DNA from: Fimbriimonadaceae bacterium
GTDB lineage: Bacteria; Armatimonadota; Fimbriimonadia; Fimbriimonadales; Fimbriimonadaceae
Direction of reading: 5' to 3'
NCBI GenBank assembly: GCA_040081075.1
Contig: JBEBHJ010000014.1
Coordinates: forward strand, 1 to 59,622
DNA: 59,622 nucleotides
The first letter of the stretch is position 1; the number at the start of each line of letters is the position of its first letter. Below are positions 4,391 to 41,403 of this stretch, piece after piece. The notes under the pieces are model-generated. The model saw only the letters and a list, made by a program, of their open reading frames with translations. It was not told the origin of the DNA and did not search any database. The position numbers and the translations under genes were made by a program.

Positions 4391-4453
4391 GCAGATTTAA
4401 CCTTATTAAGGGAATGTTATTGTTGATAACACTTAGGCTCAAGGATGCCAGCC

Positions 4454-4471
4454 CTTAATCCTCTCTTAATC
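4454..4471 (+). promoter_or_regulatory. Pho-box-like direct repeat CTTAATC-CTCT-CTTAATC (7+4+7), 37 bp upstream of the porin/pst start
   Basis: An exact 7-bp direct repeat with 11-bp periodicity sits in the divergent intergenic region ahead of a porin-pstSCAB operon. PhoB-family boxes have this geometry. The CCTTATTAAGG palindrome at 4401-4411 lies nearby. Confidence 0.3.
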
Positions 4472-4508
4472 AAGCAACCGCAACATTTTCATCGGAGGAA
4501 TCCAGGAT

Positions 4509-5905
4509 ATGATTTATAAGCACACATTCACGTGCCTGACCTTACTTGCCTTGGCAGTTGTCGGAGCAACAGCTCCTCAGGAGAAAAAGCCCCAAGACAA
4601 GAAGGAAACGGCAAAGAAAGCCGCTCAGGCCCTTTCACCCCGCGTGAAAGAATTCATTACTCTTCGCGATAAGGCGACAGCCATCACTATGAAAATCGGT
4701 GAAATCGCGAGCTCCGGCAAGCTGACAACCAGCGACGAGGCGGTGGCGGCACTAAAGGCTCTCGTTCAGGAACTGGCCGATGTCAACGAAAAGTTGAAGA
4801 AGATGCAGGAGGAGATTGAGGAGATCAAAGGCTGGATCGAAGGTCAAAACGAAAGCCTGCCCATCATCGCAAATGATGTTGATCAACTCAAGCGGTTCAA
4901 AAACGGAACCTACTTGCAGTTTCAATACACCGACGGTCAAAACAACGCGAGTACGGCTCGTCCTAATGACGGCTTCAACATGCGGCGAACTCGGTTTTCG
5001 CACAACGGCACGATTGATGCGAAGACGAGCTATAAGCTCTCTGTTGACTTTTCATCGGGTTCTCAGCGTCTTGGGGCCGAGCTCAAGGATGCCCAAATTA
5101 AATACGATATCGAGCCCTCCACCGACAAGGTTGGCACAGAACTCTACTTTGGTCAACAGCCAATTCCCCTTGGCTACGAGCTCGAGCGTAGCTCAACCGA
5201 GCGAGAGTTTCCGGAGCGGGCGGCGTACAACCAACGCCTAATGGAATGGCCGGCGAGCGAGGTCGCGGCGTTTACATTAAGCATGGAGTGTCCAAAAACA
5301 CATACGTCCACGCTGGTTTATGGAACAGCTTGACCTACAATGACCCTCAGCAGCTTGAAGTCAACACCTTCCGAAACCTCTCGGGCACTCGCCTTGGCGG
5401 TCACGTTGGTGTCAAGTATGCCAACGAAAAGACTGAGATCGGACTCAGCGGATTTACGAGCTATAGAAACCCTCTTTCGTTCAGCCCTGCAGCCGGAACA
5501 ACGATTACAACTGATGGCGGCCAGCGACACCTGATCTACTTGGATGGCGCTTGGATTCCGAATCCGCAATGGGCCGTGCGCGGCGAGTTAATGTTTGGTA
5601 AGGATCGAGCTCCTCAGTTTAGTGGCAGCGGTGCCTCCCGAACGACCCCTCTGAGTTTCGAAACCGTGCGTGGCAACCACCTTCAAGTGAGCTATAGCCC
5701 GAACTACCGAAACACGATCAGCATTAGGAGCGAGTTCTTCGATCCCAATACTGGTCCAAACGACAACATTTTTGGTTATGGCGTGGCCTGGTCATACATG
5801 CTAAACCCAGGCACCAAGCTGACATTTGCTCATGAGATATTCAAAGAGCAAGGCTCTGACACCACCAATAACCTAACGACCATTCGACTTCAAGTGAAGT
5901 TCTAA
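4509..5905 (+). CDS. phosphate-selective porin O/P-like outer membrane protein; apparent frameshift (ORFs 4509..5333 and 5246..5905 overlap in different frames)
   Basis: The first ORF has a signal peptide, a coiled-coil and 'NGTYLQFQYTDGQNN...FNMRRTRF', like the porin O/P N-terminus. The second ORF continues beta strands and ends '...TIRLQVKF'. It sits immediately upstream of pstS. Confidence 0.6.
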
Positions 5906-5916
5906 GGAGATTAATC

Positions 5917-6732
5917 ATGATTACATCACTCATTGCAAGTGTCGTCCTCGCAAACCCGGTCGCCGGATCGGTCAGCGTGAAGGGCTCAGACACGATGCTC
6001 ATTCTCAACCAGCGATGGGCGGAAGCGTTTAGCAAGACGAATCCAAGCATTAGCGTTGACGTCACCGGTGGCGGTTCCTCTATCGGAATCCGCTCATTCA
6101 TCAACCGCGTCTGCGATATCTGCGCGGCTTCTCGAAAGATGAAAGCCAGCGAGGTTCAAAGCGCGCGCTCGAACCGAGGCGTTGCGAATGAGATTCCGGT
6201 GGCACTGGATGGCCTCGCGATTGCCGTTAACAAAGACAATCCAATCAAGTCAATTTCGATGGACGAGCTCAGGCGCGTTTATATCGGGCAGATCAAGAAC
6301 TGGAGTCAGTTGGGCGGGTCAAACGCACCGATTATTGTCTTCAGCCGCGATAGCAACTCGGGAACTTATGGGTTCTTCCAAGAGAAAGTTCTTCGGAACC
6401 AGAACTGGGGTGGCCACGTTCGCTTCCTGCCTTCAACCAGCGAGGAAGCTCGGGAAGTATCACGTACCGAGAACGGCATCGCCTATGGCGGAGTGGCTTA
6501 CTTCAAAGGCAAGTCTGGGCTAAAGATCGTTCCGGTTTCGGTGAAGGAAGGCGGCGAGGCCATTGCTCCAACCGAAGCCAATGTTCGATCCAAGACCTAT
6601 CCGATCTGGCGCTACCTCTACTATTACACGAACGGCAAGCCAACTGGGGCCACGAAGACTTTCATTGACTACGTGTTGTCTCCATCGGGTCAAAAAGTTG
6701 TCGAGCAAGTTGGCTATTACAGCCTGAACTAG
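5917..6732 (+). CDS. pstS: phosphate ABC transporter substrate-binding protein PstS
   Basis: PBP-like with 'SVKGSDTMLILNQRWAEAF...VDVTGGGSSIGI'. A GGAG RBS lies at 5906-5909. It is followed by pstCAB. Confidence 0.85.
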   Translation: MITSLIASVVLANPVAGSVSVKGSDTMLILNQRWAEAFSKTNPSISVDVTGGGSSIGIRSFINRVCDICAASRKMKASEVQSARSNRGVANEIPVALDGLAIAVNKDNPIKSISMDELRRVYIGQIKNWSQLGGSNAPIIVFSRDSNSGTYGFFQEKVLRNQNWGGHVRFLPSTSEEAREVSRTENGIAYGGVAYFKGKSGLKIVPVSVKEGGEAIAPTEANVRSKTYPIWRYLYYYTNGKPTGATKTFIDYVLSPSGQKVVEQVGYYSLN

Positions 6733-6750: not shown

Positions 6751-8213
6751 ATGAAAGCCCGACTGACAGATTGGATCATGGAGCGCCTTGTGGCGATCTC
6801 TGGGATCTCGGTCGGGCTTTTGGTTCTGAGTGTTTTCTATTTTCTTGCTTCCGAATCGCGCTATGCGTTTGATAGGAAGTTTCCTTACGGGTATCGCATT
6901 GCCCTTCAACCTGCTTCCGCTCCGAGTTCGGATGCCGTGGAGATGGATCCAAATGCGAGCGTAATCACCGCCCATATGGATGGCCTCGATGGTCTTGACG
7001 ACAAAGAGTCGTTGCCGATGCCCACGCTTTCGGACCTCGCGGGTGTCGCCACAACTGGAACGGGGTCCCCCCTCGTCAGTGACCTGAAAAAGGCAGATTC
7101 GGCCCAATTAACACGTGACGACTGGCGAGCTTGGAAGTCAGCTTCGGAAGGTGAGACGTTTTATCTTTACGCCTACGGGACTCCGGAGCTCAAAGAGTCC
7201 AAGGTAAAGCTTCGTTGGGAACCCGATGCGTCCTACGATCCCAAGCTTGGGGTTCATAACGTTCACCTCACATTGGCTCAAGCTCCGCCTGGAATCACAG
7301 CCCCACCCGTTGATGTTGACCTCGTCGCCCAGCCCTCCGGAGAGATTGAGTTACCCGCGTGGCAAGCCAAATCAGATGAGGACCGAACAAAAGGTTACAT
7401 TTTCAAGGTTCAAGTTGAACCCAAAGCAGGTTCAAACCTTACGGCTACTCTTGGAGGCTTCGTCAAGTCAGAATGGTCACCAACCTCTCAGTATCCAAAG
7501 TTCGGATTTATCGCCCTTCTAATTTCAACACTCACCATCACTGGGTTAGCGTTGCTTTTCGCCATTGGGCCGGCGCTTATGGCCGCCGTCTACGTTCGAG
7601 AACTGGCTCCGCGCCGCGTAGGAGAGTGGCTCAAGCCCATTATCGAAATGCTGGCAAGCACCCAACCGTGGTCCTTGGATATTTCGGGCTTATGTTGGTT
7701 GCACCAGGCTTGGTTTCCACTTTTGGCAAAGCTCTCTCCTTTGATTCTGGAAGGTGCGTATTGACGGCCGCGATCATGATGGCCATCTTGATCATGCCCA
7801 CAATCGTTTCCATTGCCGAGGACACCCTTGGCAATCTCCCCAACTCGCTCCGGCAGGGCGGCGAGGCCTTGGGTCTAACCACGATGGAATCGGTGCGCAA
7901 GGTAGTGATTCCGGCCGCTAAGCCAGGTTTGATCGGGGCTGGAATGTTAGGGTTTGCCCGTGCGCTCGGCGAGACGATGATCGTGTGGATTCTCGCGGGA
8001 GGCACGCCAAACATGATTCCGTTTTCGCCGCGGGCTCTGGTTTCGCCAGTAAGAGGTATCGCCGATACGATTGGCATCGAAATGGCAAATGTAGAGTTTG
8101 AGAAACCTCATTACGGACATCTCTTTTTGATTGGATTGGTGCTGTTTTTGCTGACGATCTCCATCAACCTATATGCTCAAAAGGTTTCAAGGAGGGCACT
8201 GTGCAGAGTGTGA
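6751..8213 (+). CDS. pstC: phosphate ABC transporter permease PstC with a long N-terminal periplasmic insert; apparent frameshift near 7650-7670 (ORFs 6751..7764 and 7473..8213)
   Basis: Frame 1 reads '...IIEMLAS' and frame 3 continues 'VVLGYFGLMLVAPG...ARALGETMIVWILAGG', conserved PstC segments. A 1-nt indel reconciles them. Confidence 0.65.
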
Positions 8214-9862: not shown

Positions 9863-9899
9863 CACGGGTTGTATGATTCGCAGTAAAATCTAACCCGTG
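9863..9899 (+). promoter_or_regulatory. 8-bp inverted repeat CACGGGTT...AACCCGTG (21-nt loop) directly after the pstB stop, enclosing the GTG start of the next gene
   Basis: Seen in sequence: the stem arms are at 9863-9870 and 9892-9899, and the GTG start of the CoA-transferase gene is 9897-9899. Confidence 0.25.
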
Positions 9900-17288: not shown

Positions 17289-18286
17289 TCTTCTTCAATA
17301 GACAAGGCGAAAGGCTCACCCATGCTGCCCATTTTTCGAAACTTGTCGTAGCGATGCTGCTTAACCTCGTCGCCTGACAATGAGCTCAAACTTTCCAAGT
17401 ATCGGTGGATTGCAAGTTTGATGTGCCCGGCTGCCTCTATCGGGTCCCGATGAGCGCCACCTTTGGGCTCGGGCAGAATCTCGTCGATGAGTTGAAGCTC
17501 GAATGCGCTTTGAGCGGTTAGCTTTAGAGCGGCGGCGGCTTGGGGAGCCATTTCGGGCTTTCTCCAAAGGATCGCCGCACAGCCTTCCGGTGGGATGACT
17601 GAATAAATCGCATGTTCTTGCATGAGAACAACGTTCGCAACGGCTAAAGCCAGCGCCCCGCCCGAGCCGCCTTCTCCCACCACGACAGCGATTGTCGGCA
17701 CCCGCAACTCGAACATCTTCAGCATCGAAGCTGCCAGCGCCTCCGATATTCCTCGCGCCTCACTCTCGACCCCAGGATCAGCTGCTGGCGTATCGACAAA
17801 GCAAATGACTGGCATCCCAAAGCGATCAGCCATGTCCATCAGTCGCATTGCCTTTCGATAGCCTTCGGGCTTGGCCATTCCAAAATTTCGATATTGGCGT
17901 TCTTGGATGTTTCGACCTTTTTGGTGCCCAATAACCATCACGCCGCGGCCATCTAAGCTCGCTGGCCCCCCAACAATTGCATGGTCCGCCCCAAACCGGC
18001 GATCTCCATCAAGTTCTACAAATTCCGTGAAAATGGTTTGAATGTAGTCGAGGGTGTAAGGTCGCTTTTCCGCACGGGAAACCAAAACTTTTTCCCATGG
18101 GCCCAAACGGCTATACAGCAATTCTATCGCCTGGTCGCGCCGGGCCTCGTCGCGGGCGACCTTCTCTAGGAGTCGCGCCCGTTCCGCGGGATCGCTCGTT
18201 TTTGCGGCGGCTTCCTTAAATTTATTGATGGCTTCGGTGGCATCAATAATTGGGCGTTCCCATTCTTTCCAGCTTTTAGCGGCCAC
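17285..18286 (-). CDS. accA: acetyl-CoA carboxylase carboxyltransferase subunit alpha
   Basis: 'GGPASLDGRGVMVIGHQKGR', 'GFGMAKPEGYRKAMRLM' and 'TPAADPGVESEARG' match AccA. Confidence 0.9.
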   Translation of the reverse strand: MAAKSWKEWERPIIDATEAINKFKEAAAKTSDPAERARLLEKVARDEARRDQAIELLYSRLGPWEKVLVSRAEKRPYTLDYIQTIFTEFVELDGDRRFGADHAIVGGPASLDGRGVMVIGHQKGRNIQERQYRNFGMAKPEGYRKAMRLMDMADRFGMPVICFVDTPAADPGVESEARGISEALAASMLKMFELRVPTIAVVVGEGGSGGALALAVANVVLMQEHAIYSVIPPEGCAAILWRKPEMAPQAAAALKLTAQSAFELQLIDEILPEPKGGAHRDPIEAAGHIKLAIHRYLESLSSLSGDEVKQHRYDKFRKMGSMGEPFALSIEED

Positions 18287-19061
18287 ACTTGCCTCCTAGC
18301 ATTTTCACCAAGCTTGTCAACGTGTTTTTCAGGTCGCGCCGATGGACGATTCGGTCTAACAATCCATGATTAAACACAAATTCGGTCGTTTGAAAGTCAT
18401 CAGGAATCCTAGAAACCCCGGCCTGCTTCGAAACCCGTGCTCCGGCAAGGCCGATCAGTGCCTTTGGCTCGGCAATGATAACATCGGCAACACTCGCGTA
18501 TGAGGCTAAAACTCCGGCCATGGTGGGGTCTGTAAAGACACAAATATACGGAACTCCGACCTCATTACAACGCTGAACTGCTGCAGTTGTCTTTGCCATC
18601 TGCATGAGAGAGAGCATGCCCTCTTGCATACGGGCACCGCCCGAGGTTGTGAAGACGATTGCCGGGATTTTCTCATCGGCGGCGCGTTCAAGGGTTCTCG
18701 TTATTTTCTCTCCAGCAACCGAACCCATGGAGCCACCCATGAACGCAAAATCCGAAACTGCCGTAGCCACGGGATGGGTATCAAGAGTGGCGTAACCCGA
18801 GACAATCGAATCAAAGGAGCCAGTTTTGGCTTCAGCGGCGAGCCGCTTTTCTTGGTAGTCTGGAAACTCAAGCGGGTTACCCGATCGCAGATCGGTATCG
18901 CTTTCAGTAAATGAATCCGCATCAAAGATCATCTCGATGCGCTCCCGGGCCGAGAGGCGATGGTGGTGCCCACAGTGATGGCATACCCGTAGGTTTTGCT
19001 CAAATTCAGACGCAAACAGAATCTTCTTGCAACCGGCGCACTGTAGGAAGGATCCACTCAT
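18276..19061 (-). CDS. accD: acetyl-CoA carboxylase carboxyltransferase subunit beta
   Basis: N-terminal Zn ribbon 'CAGCKK...CHHCGHHHR', then the carboxyltransferase domain 'FMGGSMGSVAGEKI'. It overlaps accA by 11 nt. Confidence 0.9.
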   Translation of the reverse strand: MSGSFLQCAGCKKILFASEFEQNLRVCHHCGHHHRLSARERIEMIFDADSFTESDTDLRSGNPLEFPDYQEKRLAAEAKTGSFDSIVSGYATLDTHPVATAVSDFAFMGGSMGSVAGEKITRTLERAADEKIPAIVFTTSGGARMQEGMLSLMQMAKTTAAVQRCNEVGVPYICVFTDPTMAGVLASYASVADVIIAEPKALIGLAGARVSKQAGVSRIPDDFQTTEFVFNHGLLDRIVHRRDLKNTLTSLVKMLGGKCGR

Positions 19062-19110
19062 TGCGGACCATGACTATACCGCGAAAGGCGTCGGCGGGTT
19101 ATTATGAGCA

Positions 19111-19440
19111 ATGCCTGTAACTCCGGAGTTCCGTGACGCAACGCTGCCTAAGCTGGCAGCCGTTTGCAACCTTCGTTCAAAGCCCATGTTTGGCGGCATC
19201 GGAATATATTGCGACGAAGTTTTCTTTGCCTGCATAGACGATGACCGGATTTATTTCAAAGTCGGGGCCGAGAACCTGAGCGATTACGAAGCCCTTGGCG
19301 CGGATTCTTGGGTCATCGGCAGTGGCGAGCTCATGAAGAACTACCGCGAACTGCCAAGCGCCGTCCTCGCCAACCCCAAAGAGCTCGCGGTCTGGATAGA
19401 AAAATCAGTTGCAGCGGCTTTGAACAAAAAGAAGCGGTGA
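19111..19440 (+). CDS. TfoX/Sxy N-terminal domain protein
   Basis: 109 aa with 'RSKPMFGGIGIYCDEVFFACIDDDRIYFKV', like the TfoX_N domain. Confidence 0.55.
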   Translation: MPVTPEFRDATLPKLAAVCNLRSKPMFGGIGIYCDEVFFACIDDDRIYFKVGAENLSDYEALGADSWVIGSGELMKNYRELPSAVLANPKELAVWIEKSVAAALNKKKR

Positions 19441-19505
19441 AGCTTAGAGCAGCCCTGCATGTTAATAACATACAATCATCTACTTGCCGGTAGACGGTTG
19501 TGACA

Positions 19506-19517
19506 TTTTTGCAAAAA
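19506..19517. promoter_or_regulatory. palindrome TTTTTGCAAAAA (contains a TTGCAA -35-like hexamer) followed by GTCT; conserved at 39354-39367 upstream of the paralogous cassette
   Basis: Seen in both paralogous upstream regions, immediately 5' of the CTTT tract. Confidence 0.3.
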
Positions 19518-19525
19518 AGTCTTGT

Positions 19526-19564
<39 letters not shown>

Positions 19565-19570
19565 GTGAGC

Positions 19571-20701
19571 ATGGGAAAAAGGCTTTCAATCGCTGTGGCG
19601 TTTCTCTTAGCGATTCTCGGATTCGCACATCCAAAACAAGTCAGTGGACCCACTATCCAAATTCCGGCCGGAGGTGGGCCAATGCCGAATTACTTTAGCG
19701 GCACAAACTGTCGAGCGAGTGGAAGTGCTCAACTGGGTAGCGGTGTCGAGCACGCGGAGCTTTATTTAATTGGCAATGGTGTAGCGACACTTGTCGCTTC
19801 CTTTGTCAGTGATGACGAGCAGTTGCCTATGTCCATTAGCCTGGCCGCGATGTTTGATTCAAGTCACTACTCGCCGGGAACGACACTCTCGGTGAAGTTG
19901 TCCGTAAAGTGTGCGAATATTGCCCAGCCGTACGTATTGACCGCCGGGTCAGTGCCAGTTAAGAATAGGCTTATTGTTTATGAATATCCCGATCCCAATA
20001 TAGCTCCCGTTGGAACCATTATCGCTGGTCATATGGCCAACAAAAATTACACGGTGTATGGCACCGGGAATTCTCTGTTTTGGTCTGCCCAGACCTATCT
20101 CGGTGACTTAAGCGGTGCGACCGCAAGTGTCTGTAGCACGCACGGCAACGTGCCGTTTCATTGGAGTGGAACAAATGACAATATTTACCCCACGTCAAAT
20201 CCCTATAACTACTTAGCCTATAGAACATCACAGATAGGCTCAACCTCCGCCCCAAATGGGTTGCCGCCATTTAACTCGGGCCAGCCGCCACTCAACTTTC
20301 TGCACCTGCTAGGATGCTTATGCGGTCAAAATCCAATCTTTTTGCTTGGGGCAACGTATCCTGGGGACTGGGCCTATCCTAACTCAGTTATTCAAGACCA
20401 ATGCTACTTGGGGTATCGGCCCCTCATCAGCACTGAGCAGGCAGATGAACACGCAGAGTTCATCTGGTCAAGGTTAGCGGCAGGTAAGAACATGAGTCAA
20501 ATCGTGGTCGATATTGATGACGCTATAGACAACTATCCCTACCTCTTTTTATGTTGGGAAACGTATCAAGACTATGAGAACCACAATGAGCAATACATGG
20601 TTGCCGACGACTGGAAAGTTTATGGTGATCCTTGCATGAGAATGAAAGGGGTGTGGTGTCCATGGAGTCCCCCCATCAATGATTGGAAGCGGCAAATCTA
20701 A
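19571..20701 (+). CDS. secreted Cys-containing protein of unknown function, paralog A1 (signal peptide MGKRLSIAVAFLLAILGFAHP); possible caspase-fold-like His/Cys dyad
   Basis: ORF 19484..20701 with a probable start at 19571 just after the TATAAT. It is homologous to ORF 39494..40522 in blocks ('GTNCR.SG', 'AMFDSSH', 'THG', 'NP.NYL..RT.Q.GS', 'PPLNF.HLL.C.CG'). Confidence 0.65.
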   Translation: MGKRLSIAVAFLLAILGFAHPKQVSGPTIQIPAGGGPMPNYFSGTNCRASGSAQLGSGVEHAELYLIGNGVATLVASFVSDDEQLPMSISLAAMFDSSHYSPGTTLSVKLSVKCANIAQPYVLTAGSVPVKNRLIVYEYPDPNIAPVGTIIAGHMANKNYTVYGTGNSLFWSAQTYLGDLSGATASVCSTHGNVPFHWSGTNDNIYPTSNPYNYLAYRTSQIGSTSAPNGLPPFNSGQPPLNFLHLLGCLCGQNPIFLLGATYPGDWAYPNSVIQDQCYLGYRPLISTEQADEHAEFIWSRLAAGKNMSQIVVDIDDAIDNYPYLFLCWETYQDYENHNEQYMVADDWKVYGDPCMRMKGVWCPWSPPINDWKRQI

Positions 20702-21660
20702 TGAAATCACAACTATTTGTCGGACTCGTGTTAATACTCTCGGTAGCCAACGCGTCGGCGCAGTTGAACGATGACGAGATCAAATCCCGAGTTCGATTCT
20801 ATGCGGACAAACTTGGAATCGAATTGCATGGGCCCGGAATCGCTACGGAGTCAAGCGTACAATCATTCCGCAGAGTTTATTTTGGTCAATTGAGTTGTTC
20901 CATCCGCAAAACGGATGGAACGCTGGTGGTGCTTTGGGTTGGTCAACAGGTTGAACAAGCCGACTTAGGTGCTGAAGACTTTGGGGATGACGAAGCCGCA
21001 TGGTCGCTAGCAGAGGGGATTCTTCGGACGCTCGAACTCGATGAGGGCCGATTCCGGGGGAAGATCATATGGGAAGATGCAAAGGGGCCGGTTGGGGTGA
21101 ATGAGTGTCCCTACGTATCCTGTTCATTTGTTCCCAAGCCATACGGCTATAAGGTTGCCGGCGGAAATTCCGTTGAGATCGCGTTTCGGCGCCGGGATGG
21201 TGCCTTGTTTCGTGTGAGTTCCGGTACGCCTTTTACCTACGAGCGGCCGAATATCCAAATCACCGAAGAACAAGCTAAAGCGGTCGCAATCCGGGAGTAT
21301 GGGGGCGAACCAGGGGATTGGCACGTATCGGAGCCGTTTTACACGACGGGTGTAAACCCCTATGTTTCCGATGAAATCCGGCGGATGGCCGAAAATCGCG
21401 TAATGCGACTTTGCCTTAGCGTCGGCTCGCCATTTGGAAAGGTTACGGTTGATACAGTTAAGGGCACGCTGGTCTACAAGGCGGCTCCGCCTTTGGCTAT
21501 CCCCACCAAACCTAAACTTCCAAAGCCAGCGGTCGCGGCCCAAACCACACCGGATGTTGCAGTTACGCCGACACCAAGCAGATTGCCCTTAATACTTGGA
21601 AGTATTGCCGGGATTTTGGCGTTCGGTTACTTCTACACCTGGCTCCGGAAGCGCCAATAG
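20701..21660 (+). CDS. PepSY-like domain protein with signal peptide and C-terminal TM anchor, paralog B1; start overlaps the A1 stop (TAATG)
   Basis: 'MKSQLFVGLVLILSVANASA' signal. 'YERPNIQITEEQAKAVAIREYGG' is a PepSY-like motif, also present in ORF 40504..41403 as 'YEQPNIRVTTSEARGIAEWYLGH'. The C-terminal 'LPLILGSIAGILAFGYFYTWLRKRQ' is an anchor. Confidence 0.55.
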   Translation: MKSQLFVGLVLILSVANASAQLNDDEIKSRVRFYADKLGIELHGPGIATESSVQSFRRVYFGQLSCSIRKTDGTLVVLWVGQQVEQADLGAEDFGDDEAAWSLAEGILRTLELDEGRFRGKIIWEDAKGPVGVNECPYVSCSFVPKPYGYKVAGGNSVEIAFRRRDGALFRVSSGTPFTYERPNIQITEEQAKAVAIREYGGEPGDWHVSEPFYTTGVNPYVSDEIRRMAENRVMRLCLSVGSPFGKVTVDTVKGTLVYKAAPPLAIPTKPKLPKPAVAAQTTPDVAVTPTPSRLPLILGSIAGILAFGYFYTWLRKRQ

Positions 21661-21737
21661 AAGCCGCCAACAAACCGGAAAAAGAAGTCAAGATAAGCGG
21701 CTGAATTTGGGCTACTGGTAGACTCAAAGAACGCACA

Positions 21738-23690
21738 ATGCGCCTTGACCGACTCGCAAAATTCGCTTGGTTTGTTTTGGGGTGGACTTTGCTCACCATC
21801 GTTTGGGGAGCTTTCGTTCGGCTCAGCTTCTCGGGCGATGGGTGCGGAAGCCATTGGCCTGGTTGCAACGGCCAGCTAATCCCCTCGCTGAAAAGCGCAA
21901 AGGAGATTATTGAATACTCTCACCGATTGACCAGCGCGGTAGATGGTCTGCTGATTCTGGCCTTAGTTGCTCTGGCGTTCCTTCGCAGAGCCACTAATCC
22001 CCACGCTCTAAAAGCCAGCCTGATCGCTCTCCTGTTTGTCACCTTCGAAGTAATCATCGGGCGTGGGCTTGTCAAATTCGGTTGGGTGGCCTACGACCAA
22101 TCGTCCGAACGCGCGGTGGTCCTAGGTGTCCATCTCGCTAATACCTTTGTGTTAGTGGGAGCCCTCGCCCTTGCTGCCGCTTGGCTCTCGGGAATGCCTC
22201 GACCCCGTTGGAAAGGGCAAGGTGCGATGGGTTGGGCGCTCGTTTTTGGCATTCTTGGGCTCCTGGTGTTAGGCATAAGCGGCGCGATTACCTCGCTCGG
22301 CGATAAGCTGTTTCCGGTTGGGTCGACTCAAGAGGCAATTCAGGGAGCGTTGGACAGTTCGTCTCATTTTCTGGTTCGCCTCAGGATTTTGCATCCGCTC
22401 ATCGCGGTCTCGGTTGGTGTTTATCTGGTGCTGATCACCGGCTTGCTCACGCACATGAGGAAGAGCGCGCTTGTTGCCGAACTTTCAAAATGGGTTGCCG
22501 GGCTTTTTGCGGCCCAAATTGCAATCGGCTTGTTGAACAAGTTCCTGCTTGCCCCAACGTCGCTTTCGCTCGTCCACCTCTTGGTCGCAGATGCCGTTTG
22601 GATTTCGTTTGTTGTGTGGGGCTTCGCCTGTGTAGCCGAGGGCGTGGAACGAGCGGAGCAAGTTGCCCCCCCTACGGAAGACCTGGGTCGCGCGACTTAC
22701 AAGGATTACCTGGTTCTTACGAAACCTCGGGTTATTAGCCTGCTTCTTTTCACGACCCTTACTGCGCTGTTTGCGGCTTCCGGGGGCAAGCCTGGCTTCG
22801 TCCTGTTCCTTGCGGTCGCCGTTGGTGGGTACATGGCCGCCGGAGCTGCAAATGCCATTAACATGGTGATAGATCGTGATATCGATGCTTCGATGAAGCG
22901 AACGGCCTCCCGACCAACCGTCACCCAGAAGATCCCTTCGGGTCATGCCCTCTATTTCGCGTTCGGCCTGGCCCTGCTCTCCTTTGCGTTGCTTTGGGCG
23001 GCAGCGAACTTGCTTACGGCGATGTTAGCGCTCGCTGGATTGGCTTTCTACGTCGTTGTCTACACGCTCATGCTCAAGCGAAGAACTTGGCACAATATTG
23101 TCATAGGCGGAGCAGCGGGTGCGTTCCCACCTCTCGTGGGTTGGGCGGCGGCCACTAATGAGCTCAGCCCCCTCGCTTGGATTCTTTTTGGAATCATATT
23201 TGTGTGGACGCCTGTTCACTTTTGGGCTCTGGCGATCATGATAAAAGATGATTATGCGAAAGCCAACATCCCCATGTTGCCAGTTGTTCATGGTGAACGT
23301 GCCACCGTCATCCAGATTGTCATCTACGGAGTTGTTACCGCCGTGGTGTCTGTTCTACCGGTGTTTATGCATCCCGCGCACGGGCCTGGCGTAGCCCAAC
23401 TCTATCTGTGGAGCGCAGTCGTGCTGAACTTGATTCTATTGGTCCGATGTGTTCAGCTTTACATCACTACTGATCGACCCCACGCATTGAAGCTCTATAA
23501 ATTCTCGATGCTGTATTTGGCCCTACTTTTCCTCATTTTTGCAATTGATTGCGCGATTCCTTCTGGGGGTCGTGCTTCGTCAACACAGACAACGCTTCGT
23601 CATGGTAGGCTATTAGGCGGCTCGGATGTGGATATCCAGCCGGGGTTTGCAATGAAAAGCAAGGAGTGCGTTTATGGCTCAGTTATTTAA
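21738..23690 (+). CDS. ctaAB: fused heme A synthase (CtaA/COX15-like) and protoheme IX farnesyltransferase (CtaB/CyoE)
   Basis: The N-terminal half has 'GAFVRLSFSGDGCGSHWPGCNG' and multi-TM helices with His residues. The C-terminal half has 'LTKPRVISLL', 'NMVIDRDIDASMKRTASRP' and 'WTPVHFWALAI', UbiA-family heme O synthase motifs. Confidence 0.8.
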   Translation: MRLDRLAKFAWFVLGWTLLTIVWGAFVRLSFSGDGCGSHWPGCNGQLIPSLKSAKEIIEYSHRLTSAVDGLLILALVALAFLRRATNPHALKASLIALLFVTFEVIIGRGLVKFGWVAYDQSSERAVVLGVHLANTFVLVGALALAAAWLSGMPRPRWKGQGAMGWALVFGILGLLVLGISGAITSLGDKLFPVGSTQEAIQGALDSSSHFLVRLRILHPLIAVSVGVYLVLITGLLTHMRKSALVAELSKWVAGLFAAQIAIGLLNKFLLAPTSLSLVHLLVADAVWISFVVWGFACVAEGVERAEQVAPPTEDLGRATYKDYLVLTKPRVISLLLFTTLTALFAASGGKPGFVLFLAVAVGGYMAAGAANAINMVIDRDIDASMKRTASRPTVTQKIPSGHALYFAFGLALLSFALLWAAANLLTAMLALAGLAFYVVVYTLMLKRRTWHNIVIGGAAGAFPPLVGWAAATNELSPLAWILFGIIFVWTPVHFWALAIMIKDDYAKANIPMLPVVHGERATVIQIVIYGVVTAVVSVLPVFMHPAHGPGVAQLYLWSAVVLNLILLVRCVQLYITTDRPHALKLYKFSMLYLALLFLIFAIDCAIPSGGRASSTQTTLRHGRLLGGSDVDIQPGFAMKSKECVYGSVI

Positions 23691-24438
23691 GCCTTATGCC
23701 AATTCGTTGGCGCGGATGAGTGTGCTTGGACTCGGATTGGTGCCTGTGGTCGGCTTTTATGCTGGTTCTACCATCAGTCGGTCGGGTGCAAACACCAAAG
23801 CTATGGTCGCTCTGACTCAGCCTGTCAAGTTCAGCCACAAGCACCACGCGATGGAGTTGGGTATTAGTTGCCTGTTCTGCCACACGAACGTCGAGAAATC
23901 GGGAACGGCTGGAATACCTCCTACGGAGACATGCATGACTTGCCACAGTCAAATCTGGACAAACTCCCCTGAACTTGAAGCGGTTCGCCAGTCCTACGAG
24001 AAGGGAGCGCCAATCAAGTTTTTAGATTCGGATCAAGTGGGCTGGAATCAAGTTAACAAGGTTCCCGAATTTGTCTATTTCAATCACTCCATCCATATTG
24101 ATCGAGGTATCAACTGTAACTACTGCCACGGCCCGATACAAGAGATGCAGATGACCTACAAAAATCAAGCTTTTTCGATGGAGTGGTGTCTTGACTGTCA
24201 TCGCAATCCCGAGAAGGCCCTTTACAAAGATGGCGACTCTTCATCGCCAAAGCAGCAGGTTTTCAATCTCTATAGAAAGATTCAGGCGGGAGACAGGCTG
24301 AGTGCGCGCGAGCAGGCTCTAGCTCACGGCGAGAAATACTCGCCCACGGCCGAAGAGTTGGCAAAGGGCGAAGAACTTCTCAACGAGTATCAAATTAAGA
24401 AGAAGCAGCTCATGGATTGCTGGGTGTGCCACAGGTAG
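23674..24438 (+). CDS. actA: Alternative Complex III subunit ActA, pentaheme cytochrome c
   Basis: Five CxxCH motifs (CLFCH, CMTCH, CNYCH, CLDCH, CWVCH) and an N-terminal TM anchor. It precedes actB. Confidence 0.8.
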   Translation: MAQLFKPYANSLARMSVLGLGLVPVVGFYAGSTISRSGANTKAMVALTQPVKFSHKHHAMELGISCLFCHTNVEKSGTAGIPPTETCMTCHSQIWTNSPELEAVRQSYEKGAPIKFLDSDQVGWNQVNKVPEFVYFNHSIHIDRGINCNYCHGPIQEMQMTYKNQAFSMEWCLDCHRNPEKALYKDGDSSSPKQQVFNLYRKIQAGDRLSAREQALAHGEKYSPTAEELAKGEELLNEYQIKKKQLMDCWVCHR

Positions 24439-24441
24439 GAA

Positions 24442-27400
24442 TTGAACTTGGATAAGACTAGACCTAGAATCGATTGGGACGCTGTACGCGAAAAGCTCAA
24501 GTCAGAGGGCGGGCCAACTTATTGGCGGAGCCTTGACGAAGTTGTAGAAACGGCAGAATTCAAAACGTGGGTTGAAGACGAGTTTCCTGACAGACTTTCG
24601 ATTCCCGATATTGATCGTCGAACCGTTTTGAAGTTTATGGGGGCGTCGGCGGCACTGGCGGGACTAGCTGGCTGTCGCAACTTGCCCCAAACCAAGTTGG
24701 TCCCTTACGTAAATGATCCAGAAGGGCGACCGATTGGCGTGCGAGTTCAGTATGCGAGCATCATGCCTTTTGGTGGTTACGGCTTTCCGGTGCTTATCGA
24801 CACGATTGAGGGTCGCCCGGTTAAGATTGATGGTAATCCTGATCATCCATGGAGTAAAGGCGGAAGTGATATCTTCGCTCAAGCGGAGATGCTCAACCTG
24901 TATGATCCCGATCGACTTCGAAATCCGGTCAACGAGGGCTTGATCTCAACTTGGGACGCTTTCTTTAAGCAATGGCGAGGAATCTTTGCGGCCAAGAAAT
25001 CGAGCCAAGGTGCAGGCGTTGCGATGATTACGGAAACAGTGGCATCGCCATGTCTGGTTTCCAAAATGGAAAAGCTTATGGCTGCTTATCCGCAGGCTAA
25101 GTGGTTCCAATATGAACCCGTTAACTCCGATGGGGAGATGGCGGCGATTGGCAACTTAATGCCGATCTACGATTTCGCCCAGGCGGGAACGGTGCTTTCT
25201 CTTGATGGCGATTTCCTCAGTGGTTCTCCTCATCACGTAAGCTACGCGGCTGATTTTGCTTCCCGGCGAGATCCTGCCTTGGCCGACGCCATGTGCCGGC
25301 TATACGCGGTTGAGAGCGCGCCAAGCCCGACCGGAGCTTTTGCTGACCACCGAATCAGTGTCAAGCCATCACAGGTTGTTGCGGTTGCCCGGCTGATTGC
25401 GTCAGCTTGCGGGGTTTCGGTTACGGCTGCCAGCATTCCAGAGGTTTCCGTAAGTTGGGTGCGGGCTGTTGCTGATGACTTGAAGTCTCGCAAGGGAGCT
25501 GTGTTTGTCGGTGCGCACCAGTCTCAGGAAGTCCATGCGCTTGCTCACGAGATTAACCTTGCTATCGGTGCCCCGGTCAAATATGTTGCTCGTTCTGAGG
25601 GGCGTCCAACGCCAAAGCTAGCTTCTTTGAAAGAGTTTGTCGCAGGCAGCTTTGACACAGTGATCGTTTTGGGAGGCAATGTTGCCTACTCTGCTCCTGG
25701 AAATGTTAAAGTCGCCGATCGCTTGCTCGGAGCGAAAAATTCGGTTTATCTAGGTCTCTTCGAAAACGAAACTTCAAGGCTTTGTAAATGGCAGCTTCCC
25801 GAAGCCCATTGGCTTGAAGCATGGGGTGACAATCGAACGCCCGATGGAACGATTTCGATTCAACAGCCCGTGATTGAGCCCCTCTTTTCGGGGAAGAGCC
25901 AGTTGGAAGTTGTGTTAGGGTTGCTTGGTGACACAACAAGTGCTCGAGAGGTGACCCGCAAATCATATTCCGTGAGCGATGCCGTTTGGAACGATGGTCT
26001 AAAGCGCGGGTGGATGAATTCCAGCCCTCGATTGATCCCATCTTTCACTGCAAGCCGAGGGTCGGCTGTCGCAGTGAGCGGAATCGAAGCGATATTCTTG
26101 CCTGATCCAACCCTGTTTGATGGTCGTTACTCCAACAACGGCTGGATGCAAGAGTTGCCCAAACCCTTAACTAAGCTAACGTGGGATAACGCGGTGCTTA
26201 TCGGCCCCAAATTGGCGGCCGACCAAAAGCTCTCGGACGAGGACATGGTGAAGGTGACGGCCAATGGCGTCACGGTAGAAGCTCCAGTCTTTGTGCAAGT
26301 TGGCCACGCAAATGACAGTGTGACTTTGCACTTCGGCGGTGGTCGAACGTTTGGCGGTCGCGTTCTCCAAAACTGCGGGTTTGACTTCATGAAGCTTCGT
26401 GGGGACGACAGTTTCTGCACGGTTACAATCGAAACAAGCAAGGGCGTTTACCCGCTCGCAACGGCCCAAGTTCACCATTCAATGGAGGGCCGTGACATCG
26501 TTCGCGAGGGAACCGTTGCCGCGTTGTCCACAAATCCTAAGCTGCTTCCCGAAGAACATGAAGAGCTTGAGATTGAAACGCTCTATAACTACACTGAGGT
26601 TCTCGCAAAGGAGAATCCAGACTTGCCGCAGTGGGGAATGACGATTGACCTCAACTATTGCACGGGATGCAACGCGTGTGTGACGGCATGTCAGTCGGAA
26701 AACAATATTGCGACAGTCGGAAAGGCGGAAGTATCGCGAGGTCGCGAGCTTCATTGGCTGAGAATTGACCGTTACTACAAGGTTGCAAAAGGCAATGAGC
26801 GCCACGATATTCAGACTGGAGTGGGCGAAGCCTGGAAGTTTGAGTCGCCGATGCACAACACCGGAAGCGGCCCGATTCGGGATGCCGATGCCCTTGAGCC
26901 AAGCAACGTCGCGACCGTCTTCCAGCCCGTGCCCTGCATGCACTGCGAGTTGGCCCCGTGCGAGCCAGTTTGTCCTGTAGCGGCTACCACGCATAGCCAC
27001 GAGGGGCTCAACCAGATGGTTTACAATCGTTGTGTTGGCACTCGATACTGTTCGAACAACTGCCCTTACAAAGTTCGGCGGTTCAACTATTACAACTATC
27101 AACACGGGCAAGTGGACTTTGGATTCAAGAACAACGATAAACGAAAGGGTGACGACCAAGCCGTGATTGGCAAGCGATACGGTAACGCCAACTTCCGTGG
27201 TGAAGAGGATATTCAACTCTTGCGGATGATCAATAACCCTGATGTTACGGTGCGAAGCCGTGGCGTTATGGAGAAGTGCACCTATTGCGTGCAACGCATC
27301 AACGCCGCCCGAATCAAATCCAAGAAAGAGAGGCGACCGATTAAGGATGGAGAAGTCGTGACAGCTTGTCAGCAAGCATGTCCTACCAAAGCAATCACGT

Positions 27401-27552
27401 TTGGCGATACCGCGAATCCGCAAAGCGCCGTTTCGAAGAAGAAGAAAGAGGAGCGAAACTACTCTCTCCTTGAGCACGTGGGCACCAAACCAAGAACGAC
27501 CTATTTGGGTCGAGTTCGCAATCCTAACCCAAGCCTGGAAGGTGGCAAATGA
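24442..27552 (+). CDS. actB: Alternative Complex III subunit ActB (molybdopterin-oxidoreductase-like plus Fe-S domain)
   Basis: 1036 aa with a Tat-like 'RRTVLKFMGASAALAGLAGC' and Fe-S Cys clusters 'CTGCNACVTACQSEN' and 'CMHCELAPCEPVCPV'. Confidence 0.85.
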   Translation: MNLDKTRPRIDWDAVREKLKSEGGPTYWRSLDEVVETAEFKTWVEDEFPDRLSIPDIDRRTVLKFMGASAALAGLAGCRNLPQTKLVPYVNDPEGRPIGVRVQYASIMPFGGYGFPVLIDTIEGRPVKIDGNPDHPWSKGGSDIFAQAEMLNLYDPDRLRNPVNEGLISTWDAFFKQWRGIFAAKKSSQGAGVAMITETVASPCLVSKMEKLMAAYPQAKWFQYEPVNSDGEMAAIGNLMPIYDFAQAGTVLSLDGDFLSGSPHHVSYAADFASRRDPALADAMCRLYAVESAPSPTGAFADHRISVKPSQVVAVARLIASACGVSVTAASIPEVSVSWVRAVADDLKSRKGAVFVGAHQSQEVHALAHEINLAIGAPVKYVARSEGRPTPKLASLKEFVAGSFDTVIVLGGNVAYSAPGNVKVADRLLGAKNSVYLGLFENETSRLCKWQLPEAHWLEAWGDNRTPDGTISIQQPVIEPLFSGKSQLEVVLGLLGDTTSAREVTRKSYSVSDAVWNDGLKRGWMNSSPRLIPSFTASRGSAVAVSGIEAIFLPDPTLFDGRYSNNGWMQELPKPLTKLTWDNAVLIGPKLAADQKLSDEDMVKVTANGVTVEAPVFVQVGHANDSVTLHFGGGRTFGGRVLQNCGFDFMKLRGDDSFCTVTIETSKGVYPLATAQVHHSMEGRDIVREGTVAALSTNPKLLPEEHEELEIETLYNYTEVLAKENPDLPQWGMTIDLNYCTGCNACVTACQSENNIATVGKAEVSRGRELHWLRIDRYYKVAKGNERHDIQTGVGEAWKFESPMHNTGSGPIRDADALEPSNVATVFQPVPCMHCELAPCEPVCPVAATTHSHEGLNQMVYNRCVGTRYCSNNCPYKVRRFNYYNYQHGQVDFGFKNNDKRKGDDQAVIGKRYGNANFRGEEDIQLLRMINNPDVTVRSRGVMEKCTYCVQRINAARIKSKKERRPIKDGEVVTACQQACPTKAITFGDTANPQSAVSKKKKEERNYSLLEHVGTKPRTTYLGRVRNPNPSLEGGK

Positions 27553-39304: not shown

Positions 39305-39373
39305 CGCTATTCTAGCCGTCAAGCGTTGCCTTATTAGTAGACATTTAAAGATCTTTTGCAAAAGTCTATTCGT

Positions 39374-39385
39374 CTTTCTTTCTTT
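39374..39385. repeat. (CTTT)3 tract, short version of the 19526-19557 microsatellite, in a homologous promoter
   Basis: 'TTTTGCAAAAGTCT...CTTTCTTTCTTT-G-CTTATAAT' parallels 19506-19564. Confidence 0.8.
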
Positions 39386-39388
39386 GCT

Positions 39389-39394
39389 TATAAT
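39389..39394 (+). promoter_or_regulatory. TATAAT -10-like box 7 nt upstream of the GTG at 39402
   Basis: Same geometry as copy 1. Confidence 0.3.
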
Positions 39395-39493
39395 AGAGCT
39401 TGTGTTGCGAGCACGCCTAAGCATTTTTACATTTCTGCTGGTTCTTGCTTGTAGGATCATCTGCCAGCCGGCAGGCTGGGGATATAGTTTCCT

Positions 39494-40522
39494 GTGGGCG
39501 GGACTACAATGCCCTTCTACTTCGCAGGGACCAATTGCAGGGGATCGGGCGCGAACTTCGGGTTGCCCATTGAGGCGGCCGAACTCTATATCAGGGATGT
39601 TAATACGAACGAGGTTGAACTCGTCAATTGGTTCGATTCGGATGGCACGAACTACCCTTTGTCGATCGGCTTGAGTGCGATGTTTGATTCGAGCCACTTT
39701 GTCCCAGGTCATTCGGTGAGAATGGAGTTCTGGGTCTATCCCAGAGACTGGGAAGGTGTGCCCCTTCCACCAGGGGAATCAGCGCCTGTTGTGATCAAGA
39801 ATAAGCTCATGATGTTTGAGATTTCCGATCCAAACTTCACGCCCGACCCATCCGTGTTCGTGAATTCGACGATGACGGGTCAAAACTACACGCTTGCTCT
39901 ACACAATGCCGATGGATGGTCGGCCACGACTTATGAAAATGAAATGATCGGAACGAATGCGGTTATGGTGGCAACTCACGGGTACCCGGAAAAGCACGAT
40001 GACGACGCCTCGCACTGGATTTACCACACCTATAACCCTCTCAACTACCTTTCATTCCGCACTACTCAAGTCGGATCACCCGGCCCTTGGGGAGTACTCT
40101 TGCCTCCTTACAATCCAACAACGAACCCTCCCCTCAATTTCGTTCACTTGCTCACGTGCTCATGTGGCACGCAGATTGATCAGTTTGCAACCGGAGCCCT
40201 CTATCCGGGGCGTAACATCTACGTTCCGACGATTGAGGACCAAGCAATCGTCGGCTATGTTCCACTCATTTATATAGCCGATTTACAAACCCACGCAGAT
40301 CTAGTCTGGAACCCGTTAAAGGCTGGAAAGACCGTTGGCAAAATGCGAGAGGCACTACAAGTTTGGCTTGGTTCTCATCCTAATTTTCACGTTATTGGTG
40401 CAACAGGAGACCGCCAAATGGAGATTGCCGACCTTGCGATAGCTGGAGATCCGTTCACTAGGATCAAATCCGTTTTTACTGGTACGCACTCAAATCCAAT
40501 ATCATGGCACCGCCCATTATGA
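39494..40522 (+). CDS. paralog A2 of the secreted Cys-containing protein; signal-peptide-like segment is encoded upstream in another frame (39402..39490)
   Basis: Homology to A1 throughout. The GTG-started frame at 39402 encodes 'VLRARLSIFTFLLVLACRIICQPAGW...' and a TAG at 39485 closes the A2 frame upstream of 39494. Confidence 0.6.
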   Translation: MGGTTMPFYFAGTNCRGSGANFGLPIEAAELYIRDVNTNEVELVNWFDSDGTNYPLSIGLSAMFDSSHFVPGHSVRMEFWVYPRDWEGVPLPPGESAPVVIKNKLMMFEISDPNFTPDPSVFVNSTMTGQNYTLALHNADGWSATTYENEMIGTNAVMVATHGYPEKHDDDASHWIYHTYNPLNYLSFRTTQVGSPGPWGVLLPPYNPTTNPPLNFVHLLTCSCGTQIDQFATGALYPGRNIYVPTIEDQAIVGYVPLIYIADLQTHADLVWNPLKAGKTVGKMREALQVWLGSHPNFHVIGATGDRQMEIADLAIAGDPFTRIKSVFTGTHSNPISWHRPL

Positions 40523-41403
40523 TTACTTCTATTCTCACTACCCTGACAGCATCACTCCAGATCGGACCCGATGAAGCTTTGCGAAAAGCTGGGCAATATG
40601 CACGCGTCCTAGATCGGCCATTTGACGCGACACCTGAATCCGTTGAGCGACATGAGCGCGTCATAAGCGTTTCGTTCGGTGCTGATGAACTCATTGTATT
40701 AACTTTTAGGGGTGATTTGGTAAGTTACAGTCGGCTAGAGCGTGCCTTAGAAGCTGACATTCGCGGCACGCCTCGCTTTAGAAGCGATTCGGATGCCTTC
40801 ATTCGGGCGCAGGAGGTGATGGAACAGTTTGATTGCCCGCCAAACCTAACTCCTCGTTCGGTAGAGTGGCGCCCGTATCCATCTCGAGTTGGATCATTTG
40901 TTAACTCGATTTCGTGCTATTTTGTTCAGAACCCCCACGGTTATGCCACCTCAGTTGGAAACCATATGATTGTTGGATTACACCCCCGAACCGGGCAGGT
41001 TCTTTCGCTCAGTATGCTGGCTGATTGGAACTATGAACAACCCAACATCCGCGTGACCACGAGCGAAGCGCGTGGAATCGCAGAATGGTATCTGGGGCAT
41101 TCAGTCCAGGGGTGGCATACGGACCTTGAGTGGTTCTCACACGACGCTAGCGAGGTGCCTCCAGAAGTAAGGACCCTTTACGCCGCGAAAAAATCTCGCC
41201 TATGCTATTTTGTGAAAAGCGCGGCTGGCGCAGTGGTCATTATTGACTCTACCAACGGAGATGTGGTTAGGCACATGGTGCCCGCAAGCATCCCCTCGCC
41301 GGTGCCGTTTGGGCGGTACTACGCGATTGCAGCGGCCGTATGCCACGCCAGCGGCTTTGCGGCTGTGTCAATGCGCCCGCTTTCTCGATACCGCGTGCGC
41401 TAG
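40519..41403 (+). CDS. paralog B2, PepSY-like domain protein (ATGA overlap with the A2 stop; alternative start 40504)
   Basis: 'NYEQPNIRVTTSEARGIAEWYL' and 'VIIDSTNGDVVRHMVP' parallel B1's 'TYERPNIQITEEQAKAVAIREYGG' and 'VTVDTVKGTLVYKAAP'. Confidence 0.5.
   Translation: MITSILTTLTASLQIGPDEALRKAGQYARVLDRPFDATPESVERHERVISVSFGADELIVLTFRGDLVSYSRLERALEADIRGTPRFRSDSDAFIRAQEVMEQFDCPPNLTPRSVEWRPYPSRVGSFVNSISCYFVQNPHGYATSVGNHMIVGLHPRTGQVLSLSMLADWNYEQPNIRVTTSEARGIAEWYLGHSVQGWHTDLEWFSHDASEVPPEVRTLYAAKKSRLCYFVKSAAGAVVIIDSTNGDVVRHMVPASIPSPVPFGRYYAIAAAVCHASGFAAVSMRPLSRYRVR

Follow-up and report, generated by a model that had tools for sequence, protein, structure and literature searches.

The complete 59,622-base-pair (bp) contig of a metagenome-assembled genome of a Fimbriimonadaceae bacterium (phylum Armatimonadota), an uncultured organism of soil or water, hereafter the window, carries two paralogous two-gene cassettes, cassette A (genes A1 and A2, promoter near nucleotides (nt) 19490–19573) and cassette B (genes B1 and B2, promoter at nt 39337–39404). 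Their promoters share one order of elements, in which a tetranucleotide array of the CTTT/TTTC type lies between a GTAGAC-palindrome module and a consensus -10 hexamer close to the start codon. With moderate confidence, this array is read as a spacer of variable length that separates the conserved module from a leaderless promoter with a -10 element only, mutable in copy A, and short, interrupted and probably fixed in copy B, where it precedes a damaged gene. The site at nt 39354–39407 is probably the short, stable twin of a switch and not a second switch.

Promoter organization of the two cassettes

Copy A, located 20 kb upstream of copy B, had the order GTAGAC-N11-TTTTGCAAAA-AAGTCT-TG-(TTTC)8.5-TATAAT-N6-ATG (nt 19490–19573), and copy B the order GTAGAC-N11-TTTTGCAAAA-GTCT-ATTCGT-(CTTT)3-GCT-TATAAT-N7-GTG (nt 39337–39404). 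An earlier note on this DNA had placed the palindrome, GTCT, the CTTT tract, TATAAT and a start codon 6–7 nt downstream correctly, and had overlooked the GTAGAC block. The elements are as follows.

nt 19490–19495, plus strand: GTAGAC block of copy A, 11 nt upstream of the palindrome
nt 19507–19516, no strand: palindrome TTTTGCAAAA of copy A
nt 19526–19559, plus strand: perfect (TTTC)8.5 tract of copy A (Tandem repeat finder: period 4, 8.5 copies, 100% matches)
nt 19559–19564, plus strand: consensus -10 hexamer TATAAT of copy A; ATG 19571 comes 6 nt later
nt 39337–39342, plus strand: GTAGAC block of copy B, the same hexamer at the same 11-nt distance to the palindrome as in A
nt 39354–39363, no strand: 10-bp palindrome TTTTGCAAAA of copy B (12 bp as CTTTTGCAAAAG), a candidate regulator site or a displaced -35-like TTGCAA
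nt 39364–39367: GTCT of copy B, directly 3′ of the palindrome
nt 39365–39388, plus strand: degenerate six-unit tetranucleotide array of copy B, TCTA TTCG TCTT TCTT TCTT TGCT, read directly in unit register
nt 39374–39385, plus strand: perfect (CTTT)3 of copy B, inside the six-unit array
nt 39389–39394, plus strand: consensus -10 hexamer TATAAT of copy B; GTG 39402 comes 7 nt later

The tract of copy A, which corresponds to (CTTT)7 or 28 bp in the register of the earlier note, was the sole simple-sequence repeat in the window by the criteria used. It abuts the -10 hexamer, overlapping its first T (nt 19559), and covers the entire -35 position; the (CTTT)3 of copy B lies at the equivalent position. 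The stretch from the palindrome to the -10 hexamer comprised 39 nt in A (about 9.75 units, one of them degenerate) and 24 nt in B (six units, three of them perfect), giving distances between the centres of the palindrome and the hexamer of 50 bp and 33 bp, respectively. Further differences between the two promoters were an indel of AA, an inserted G and several substitutions. Thus, tract length (28 versus 12 bp), which had been proposed as the chief difference between them, was the largest single one within a core of about 60 nt, but was accompanied by indels and substitutions.

The layouts TATAAT-N6-ATG in A and TATAAT-N7-GTG in B, neither with a ribosome binding site, predict leaderless transcripts. 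In eight other open reading frames (ORFs) of the window, TAnAAT was observed 5–8 nt before the start codon (sites at nt 9897, 19111, 43506, 46203, 48686, 53526, 54404, and 58965), often as GGC-TAGAAT, without a ribosome binding site and in no case with a -35 element at 17 nt. The same layout occurred at five loci (L006, L017, L023, L036, and L040) among the homologues of the cassettes, of which 33 loci were taken from genome and metagenome collections and 8 more were obtained by exact protein look-up. Leaderless, -10-dominated promoters seem, from these layouts, to be normal for this organism.

RNA polymerase tolerates a spacer of 16–19 nt between the -35 and -10 elements. A sigma-70 scan of the window detected no -35/-10 pair for either TATAAT, and the TTGCAA of the palindrome cannot act as a -35 element at present because its spacer to TATAAT is 44 nt in A and 27 nt in B. 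Since the tract fills copy A from the -10 hexamer through the -35 position, a change in copy number leaves the sequence from -10 to about -40 unaltered and shifts only the upstream module. By coordinate arithmetic, one unit added to A would give a centre distance of 54 bp, exactly two helical turns (21 bp) beyond that of B, a relation in helical phase that may have functional meaning. A CRP-like half-site around the palindrome was considered and dropped, as the match was poor by eye. An Rfam scan of the whole window gave zero matches, and a known RNA element is therefore excluded.

Conservation of the promoter block

The products of B1 and A1 shared 37% identity (E = 1e-55) and those of B2 and A2 27% (E = 2e-21), values indicating that the cassettes are ancient paralogues. 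Similarity between them at the DNA level was limited to a 43-nt coding block (MFDSSH motif, 77%) and the promoter block at nt 19507–19540/39354–39385 (82%), so that the latter was as conserved as the best coding block. That such old paralogues have diverged in protein sequence yet retain the promoter block implies constraint. The interval between GTAGAC and the palindrome was kept in length, with only 2 of its 11 positions matching, and the sequence outside the blocks could not be aligned. Blocks held at fixed spacing with diverged sequence between them are thus conserved elements and not leftover duplicated DNA.

Local alignment of the two intergenic regions scored 39, against 17.3 ± 3.2 for dinucleotide shuffles, none of 2000 of which reached 39. 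The part preceding the tract scored 22 on its own, a value equalled by 12 of the 2000 shuffles and by 38 of 11,752 windows drawn from the contig. Within the 59.6-kb contig CTTTCTTTCTTT was confined to the two promoters, as was GTAGAC-N11-TTTTGCAAAA, even with 3 mismatches allowed. Exact TTTTGCAAAA was found at three sites; the third (nt 57051) was inside a coding region and looks incidental. TATAAT occurred only twice on both strands of the window, at the two cassette promoters, where 10.4 ± 3.2 sites were expected, and is apparently avoided in the rest of the contig. Chance does not explain the shared promoter order. Together with the co-linear architecture and the paralogy of the two-gene cassettes, the alignment bears out the proposal that the upstream regions are homologous, and the comparison of the two copies shows the position of the tract to be a conserved part of the promoter design. 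The further claim that the two lengths are direct evidence of expansion and contraction does not follow, as either length could have been stable for a long time in cassettes of such age.

Copy B carries an apparent frameshift and is probably stable

The genes of the two cassettes and the lesion in B1 are listed below.

nt 19571–20701, plus strand: gene A1, 376 amino acids, with a signal peptide, an Ig-like domain and a clan-CD (gingipain/CHAT-like) fold
nt 20701–21660, plus strand: gene A2, 319 amino acids, with an N-terminal signal-like segment and a C-terminal membrane anchor; 1-nt overlap with the A1 stop
nt 39402–39490, plus strand: 5′ part of gene B1, GTG start, signal peptide VLRARLSIFTFLLVLAC...QPAGWGYSF, frame 0
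nt 39488–39490, plus strand: T3 run at which B1 changes frame (apparent 1-nt deletion); one inserted T joins the frames
nt 39491–40522, plus strand: main body of gene B1, frame 2 (listed ORF 39494–40522, 342 amino acids), paralogue of A1
nt 40504–41403, plus strand: gene B2, paralogue of A2; probable start ATG 40519, overlapping the B1 stop as ATGA

A1 and A2 were intact, and the A2 gene call was also present in an independent assembly (run SRR29156679, see below). In B1, the signal peptide read from GTG 39402 and the mature domain were in different reading frames. Its signal peptide shared the 'RLSI..FLL' stretch with that of A1, and its QPAGWGYSF aligned without gaps to the N-terminus of the family. 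Insertion of one T into the T3 run gave a reading (...GWGYSFPVGGTTMPFYF...) that aligned with positions 10–354 of the family profile, with the restored product ...QPAGWGYSFPVGGTTMPFYF... matching the family N-terminus without gaps. A TAG stop is present in the mature frame at nt 39485–39487; a nonsense mutation at this stop combined with a second frameshift was rejected as the lesion in favour of a single 1-nt frameshift at nt 39488–39490, because of this gap-free match. The frame break could mark a pseudogene or a further point of slippage, or could be an error of assembly. B1 was missing from the protein database in which A1 of the same contig was included, as would be expected if it had been annotated as a pseudogene. 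An internal TATAGT-N5-GTG (nt 39483–39496) at the beginning of the listed B1 ORF mimics the leaderless layout and could in principle give a B1 product lacking the signal peptide; it is probably coincidental, since it is made by the conserved codons G-Y-S-F.

In Haemophilus and Neisseria, tetranucleotide tracts are hypermutable from roughly five perfect units upward. Copy A, with 8.5 perfect units, exceeds this length, and copy B, with three, falls short of it; in sequence, the latter looks like a stabilised, interrupted array. Three perfect units among degenerate ones, together with the B1 frameshift, make B more likely to be fixed or decaying than to switch independently. The suggestion that both copies switch independently is accordingly doubtful for B.

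Repeats in homologues of gene 1

Varied repeats were observed at or near the start of the A1/B1 homologues (gene 1) in loci of other Armatimonadota, either between the promoter elements or in the 5′ part of the coding sequence.

L002/L016: poly-C, C15NNC5 and C16, just past the ATG (L002, nt 3954–3975; L016, nt 2960–2975)
L004: (TC)15 in the 5′ coding region (nt 3959–3988)
L009: 8-mer, about 4.6 perfect copies, in the 5′ coding region (nt 3980–4016)
L010: (TCGGT)6.8, just past the ATG (nt 2738–2771)
L021a, L021b, and L022: 7-mer, 6, 4, and 4.4 copies, in the signal-peptide coding region (L021, nt 2985–3026 and 5354–5381; L022, nt 1754–1784)
L023: G10 in the spacer of TTGACA-N19-TATAGT (nt 73–82)
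L017/L018: C8 in the spacer of TTGACA-N18-TAGGGT (about nt 2970 and 1698)
L034/L035: (TC)8.5 in the spacer of TTGCTC-N18-CATAAT (about nt 1414–1434)
L036/L037: G8 in the 5′ coding region (L036, about nt 1567–1574)

The units of 1, 2, 5, 7, and 8 nt were mutually unrelated. In a non-redundant 170 kb containing 20 gene-1 starts, 9 of 11 repeats fell within 80 bp of a start, a zone making up 1.9% of the sequence (binomial P = 1.6e-14). Computed reading frames placed five of the coding-region repeats (L004, L010, L016, L021b, and L036) out of frame, each one unit from in-frame, and three (L009, L021a, and L022) in frame. Two pairs of contigs differed at their tracts: in 6960 bp, the poly-C tract was the only difference between L002 and L016, and in 5927 bp, L017 and L018 were distinguished solely by C9 versus C10 together with a neighbouring G. 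On sequence grounds such repeats are a classic signature of contingency loci, and the idea of phase variation in the gene family is strongly supported. The interpretation of the A/B pair as phase-variable, advanced earlier from the difference in length, gains stronger support from these homologues; taken alone, the A/B comparison gives no demonstration of recent expansion and contraction.

Upstream of the family genes, TTGACA was the most enriched hexamer (9 of 25 genes). AGTAGAC occurred upstream of 4 of the 25 (raw P = 6e-6), at positions that varied relative to the promoter; this enrichment was not relied on because the motif was picked after the fact and its positions were inconsistent. 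Sites of (A)GTAGAC were located in L003 (nt 1296–1302), L021 (about nt 2955–2961), L034 (about nt 1307–1313), and the window (nt 19490 and 39337). L017 (nt 1600–6100), as well as L018, contained a tandem array of cassettes in which a near-identical promoter of about 100 bp was duplicated before a truncated gene-1 remnant (nt 1724–1891), followed by gene 2, a full gene 1 (nt 2998–4107), and two further copies of gene 2, an arrangement that indicates probable recombination among cassettes.

Two further features of the homologue loci were recorded. Gene 1 of L008 was apparently frameshifted at about nt 3990–4010, just before the conserved YFSGTN motif (by comparison with L007), and would be another decaying member. 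In L004, from metagenome sample SOY_31, (AAACCCT)4, complementary to the telomere repeat of the plant type, was present at nt 7665–7693, 3.7 kb downstream of the family gene.

Proposed mechanism and alternative explanations

In the proposed mechanism, each promoter would drive a two-gene cassette encoding a secreted protein of gingipain/CHAT-like fold and a membrane-anchored partner. Slipped-strand mispairing would add or remove 4-bp units of the CTTT/TTTC array, and each unit would shift the GTAGAC-N11-TTTTGCAAAA module by 4 bp, a rotation of about 137 degrees relative to the -10 hexamer and RNA polymerase; the resulting change in transcription could be stepwise or on/off. Copy A, with 8.5 perfect units, would be a plausible active switch, and copy B a short and probably stable form, similar in this to the fimX promoter of Bordetella with its short tract. 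We infer that tract length may control transcription at A and B, that a protein may bind the palindrome, and that B is likely to be stable. Taken with the repeats of the homologues, the arrangement points to possible random on/off switching of a secreted putative protease. A bolder proposal, put forward only tentatively, is that the cassette, specific to lineages of the environmental and largely uncultured Armatimonadota, is a true contingency locus that has gained slippery repeats many times, with at least six unit sizes, in the promoter in some cases and in the 5′ coding region in others. In the window, the tetranucleotide array would then act as a rotary spacer, placed between the palindrome as operator and a leaderless promoter lacking a -35 element, a geometry that no known phase-variable promoter is described as having.

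Several observations weigh against the variable-spacer reading. In both pairs of length-variant contigs the tract is a homopolymer, a kind of sequence in which sequencing and assembly errors readily arise, and one of the pairs contains NN. Where the relatives have a repeat in the promoter, it lies within an ordinary -35/-10 spacer of 18–21 nt, a geometry seen in neither A nor B. None of the 33 homologue loci from the collections contained the palindrome, which is therefore lineage-specific. The L040 promoter has a non-repetitive spacer, CTTCTTTGCCTTTC, and the three units of B could likewise be a mere T/C-rich spacer. Exact-protein look-ups with A1, B1, B2, and the upstream FGGY kinase returned no other contig; across the homologue collections and look-ups, there was no second genome of the same species and no sequence spanning either tract.

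Look-ups with TfoX and A2 retrieved two contigs only, both from the independent assembly of run SRR29156679 and lying on either side of the A promoter. One (L042) was 100% identical to nt 17524–19505 of the window and the other (L043) to nt 19535–24400, leaving an assembly gap at nt 19506–19534 that coincides with the palindrome and the start of the tract of copy A. The gap is suggestive only, being compatible with heterogeneity or with failure to assemble low-complexity sequence. A simple repeat-length bubble in an assembly graph of k = 31 was rejected as its cause, as the break-point coordinates do not fit.

A different account, which we consider unlikely, takes TTGCAA as the true -35 element, homologous to the TTGACA of the relatives, and the spacer as over-expanded, so that both promoters would be silent and B would be becoming a pseudogene. 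The B1 frameshift agrees with it, as do the prevalence of TTGACA upstream of the family genes and the relatives L023, L017, and L034, in which a TTGACA-type -35 is separated by 18–21 nt containing the repeat from the -10 element. Arithmetically, A minus 7 units would have a spacer of 16 nt and B minus 2 units one of 19 nt, the on state requiring contraction to about 1–2 units. However, A would then be 6–7 steps from on, a poor switch with little reason to keep a perfect 34-bp tract, and A1 and A2 are intact. The other leaderless promoters of the contig likewise lack a -35 element, and the retention of a perfect TATAAT in both copies, while the hexamer is avoided elsewhere, argues for continued use.

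It is less likely still that the two promoters share nothing but the sites of a common regulator and a strong -10 hexamer, the CTTT runs being a common type of pyrimidine-rich spacer in which a single slippage occurred in A; they would have neither an adaptive nor a regulatory role, and neither copy would phase-vary. The three units of B and the T/C-rich, non-repetitive spacer of L040 would suit such a view; the standing of the 8.5-unit tract as the only simple-sequence repeat in 59.6 kb does not, nor do the six other types of repeat unit at the equivalent place in homologues, several of which are out of frame by one unit. Recent promoter-restricted gene conversion, in which a promoter of about 60 bp was copied between the cassettes before the tract lengths diverged, is the least probable: relatives do shuffle cassettes and promoters, as in L017, and almost everywhere the coding DNA is less similar than the promoter block, but the similarity is patchy, with two matches in N11 and unalignable flanks, a pattern of conserved sites at fixed spacing and not of a recent copy.

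Comparison with known phase-variable promoters

Phase variation driven by repeats is mostly seen as a strategy of pathogens adapted to a host, and searches of a literature collection found no paper linking Armatimonadota/Armatimonadetes with phase variation. The variable-spacer reading of A and B has parallels in three described systems. In Bordetella pertussis Tohama I, the fim2, fim3, and fimX promoters combine a 'fim box' with C-stretches of C12, C13, and C7, respectively. Transcription depends on the length of the stretch, and fimX, the paralogue with the short one, differs in behaviour (PMC1891110). Like these, A and B precede paralogous genes for surface or secreted proteins and have a common promoter module with a slippery tract between the upstream region and the -10 element; unlike the BvgA-regulated homopolymers of Bordetella, the tract is a tetranucleotide, the mRNA is predicted to be leaderless, and the organism is an environmental member of the Armatimonadota.

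In nadA of Neisseria meningitidis, a promoter TAAA tract between NadR operators sets the spacing of distal sites from the core promoter, and expression level varies with repeat number (PMC2791445). The tetranucleotide tracts of A and B similarly lie between distal candidate sites and the core promoter, but abut the -10 hexamer and cover the -35 position, whereas the nadA tract is upstream of the -35 and binding of NadR and IHF has been demonstrated. The hmw1A and hmw2A loci of Haemophilus influenzae carry 7-bp promoter repeats whose copy number differs by locus, more repeats generally giving less transcript (PMC2424069). There, too, two paralogous loci in one genome each have a promoter repeat array of differing copy number, although the hmw unit is 7 bp, the arrays are upstream of a conventional leader, and the paralogues are recent and highly similar, in contrast to the 27–37% identity of A and B.

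Phase variation of the spacer type, with the repeat between -35 and -10, is thus represented by L023, L017, and L034, and not by A (44 nt) or B (27 nt). In both copies the conserved GTAGAC-N11-TTTTGCAAAA module, whose palindrome was in none of the 33 homologue loci, lies upstream of the tract and would be a candidate distal element of the nadA/fim type.

The family offers, from an environmental phylum, hallmarks of phase variation in the form of varied repeats at one position, on and off frames, and contig differences confined to the tract. If the reading is correct, contingency loci would extend to free-living or plant-/soil-associated Armatimonadota, a secreted protease would be a trait under fluctuating selection (perhaps by phage, predators, or public-good cheating), and one gene family would provide a natural series of promoter- and coding-located switches. 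The A/B pair would let a long tract be compared with a short one within the same genome and promoter design, and the repeat-laden, Armatimonadota-specific cassette family is a more interesting outcome than the B site itself.

Proteins encoded by the cassettes and neighbouring features

A Pfam search with all four cassette proteins gave no match to any family. A search of 5.8 billion proteins yielded only 16 homologues of A1, the nearest sharing 36–37% identity, and all matches with a named source were from Armatimonadota genomes. The structure model of the gene 1 product had a caspase/gingipain-like alpha/beta fold, in which H191-G192 and C249, invariant in 16 sequences and candidates for a catalytic His-Cys dyad, each followed a beta-strand. 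On the strength of the invariant H-G and C in the family alignment, the product is most likely a secreted clan-CD-type cysteine peptidase. It shares the fold of clan CD enzymes (gingipains, CHAT, metacaspases, and legumain) with no sequence similarity at the Pfam level, and two features, the PxYFSGTNCR motif and an Ig-like domain at the N-terminus, are peculiar to the gene 1 family. The pairing of gene 1 with gene 2 recurred in L001 to L004, L016 to L018, L038, and L039.

Immediately downstream of cassette A, gene-call Pfam assignments and translations of nt 21738–27552 revealed a fused CtaA/CtaB-like gene (COX15-CtaA plus UbiA), a multihaem cytochrome c-like gene, and a molybdopterin/Fe-S-like gene of 1036 amino acids, a set resembling an alternative complex III operon. 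At the end of the contig (nt 59463–59573), imperfect 21/42-nt tandem repeats were present inside an ORF of the minus strand that is cut off by the contig end.

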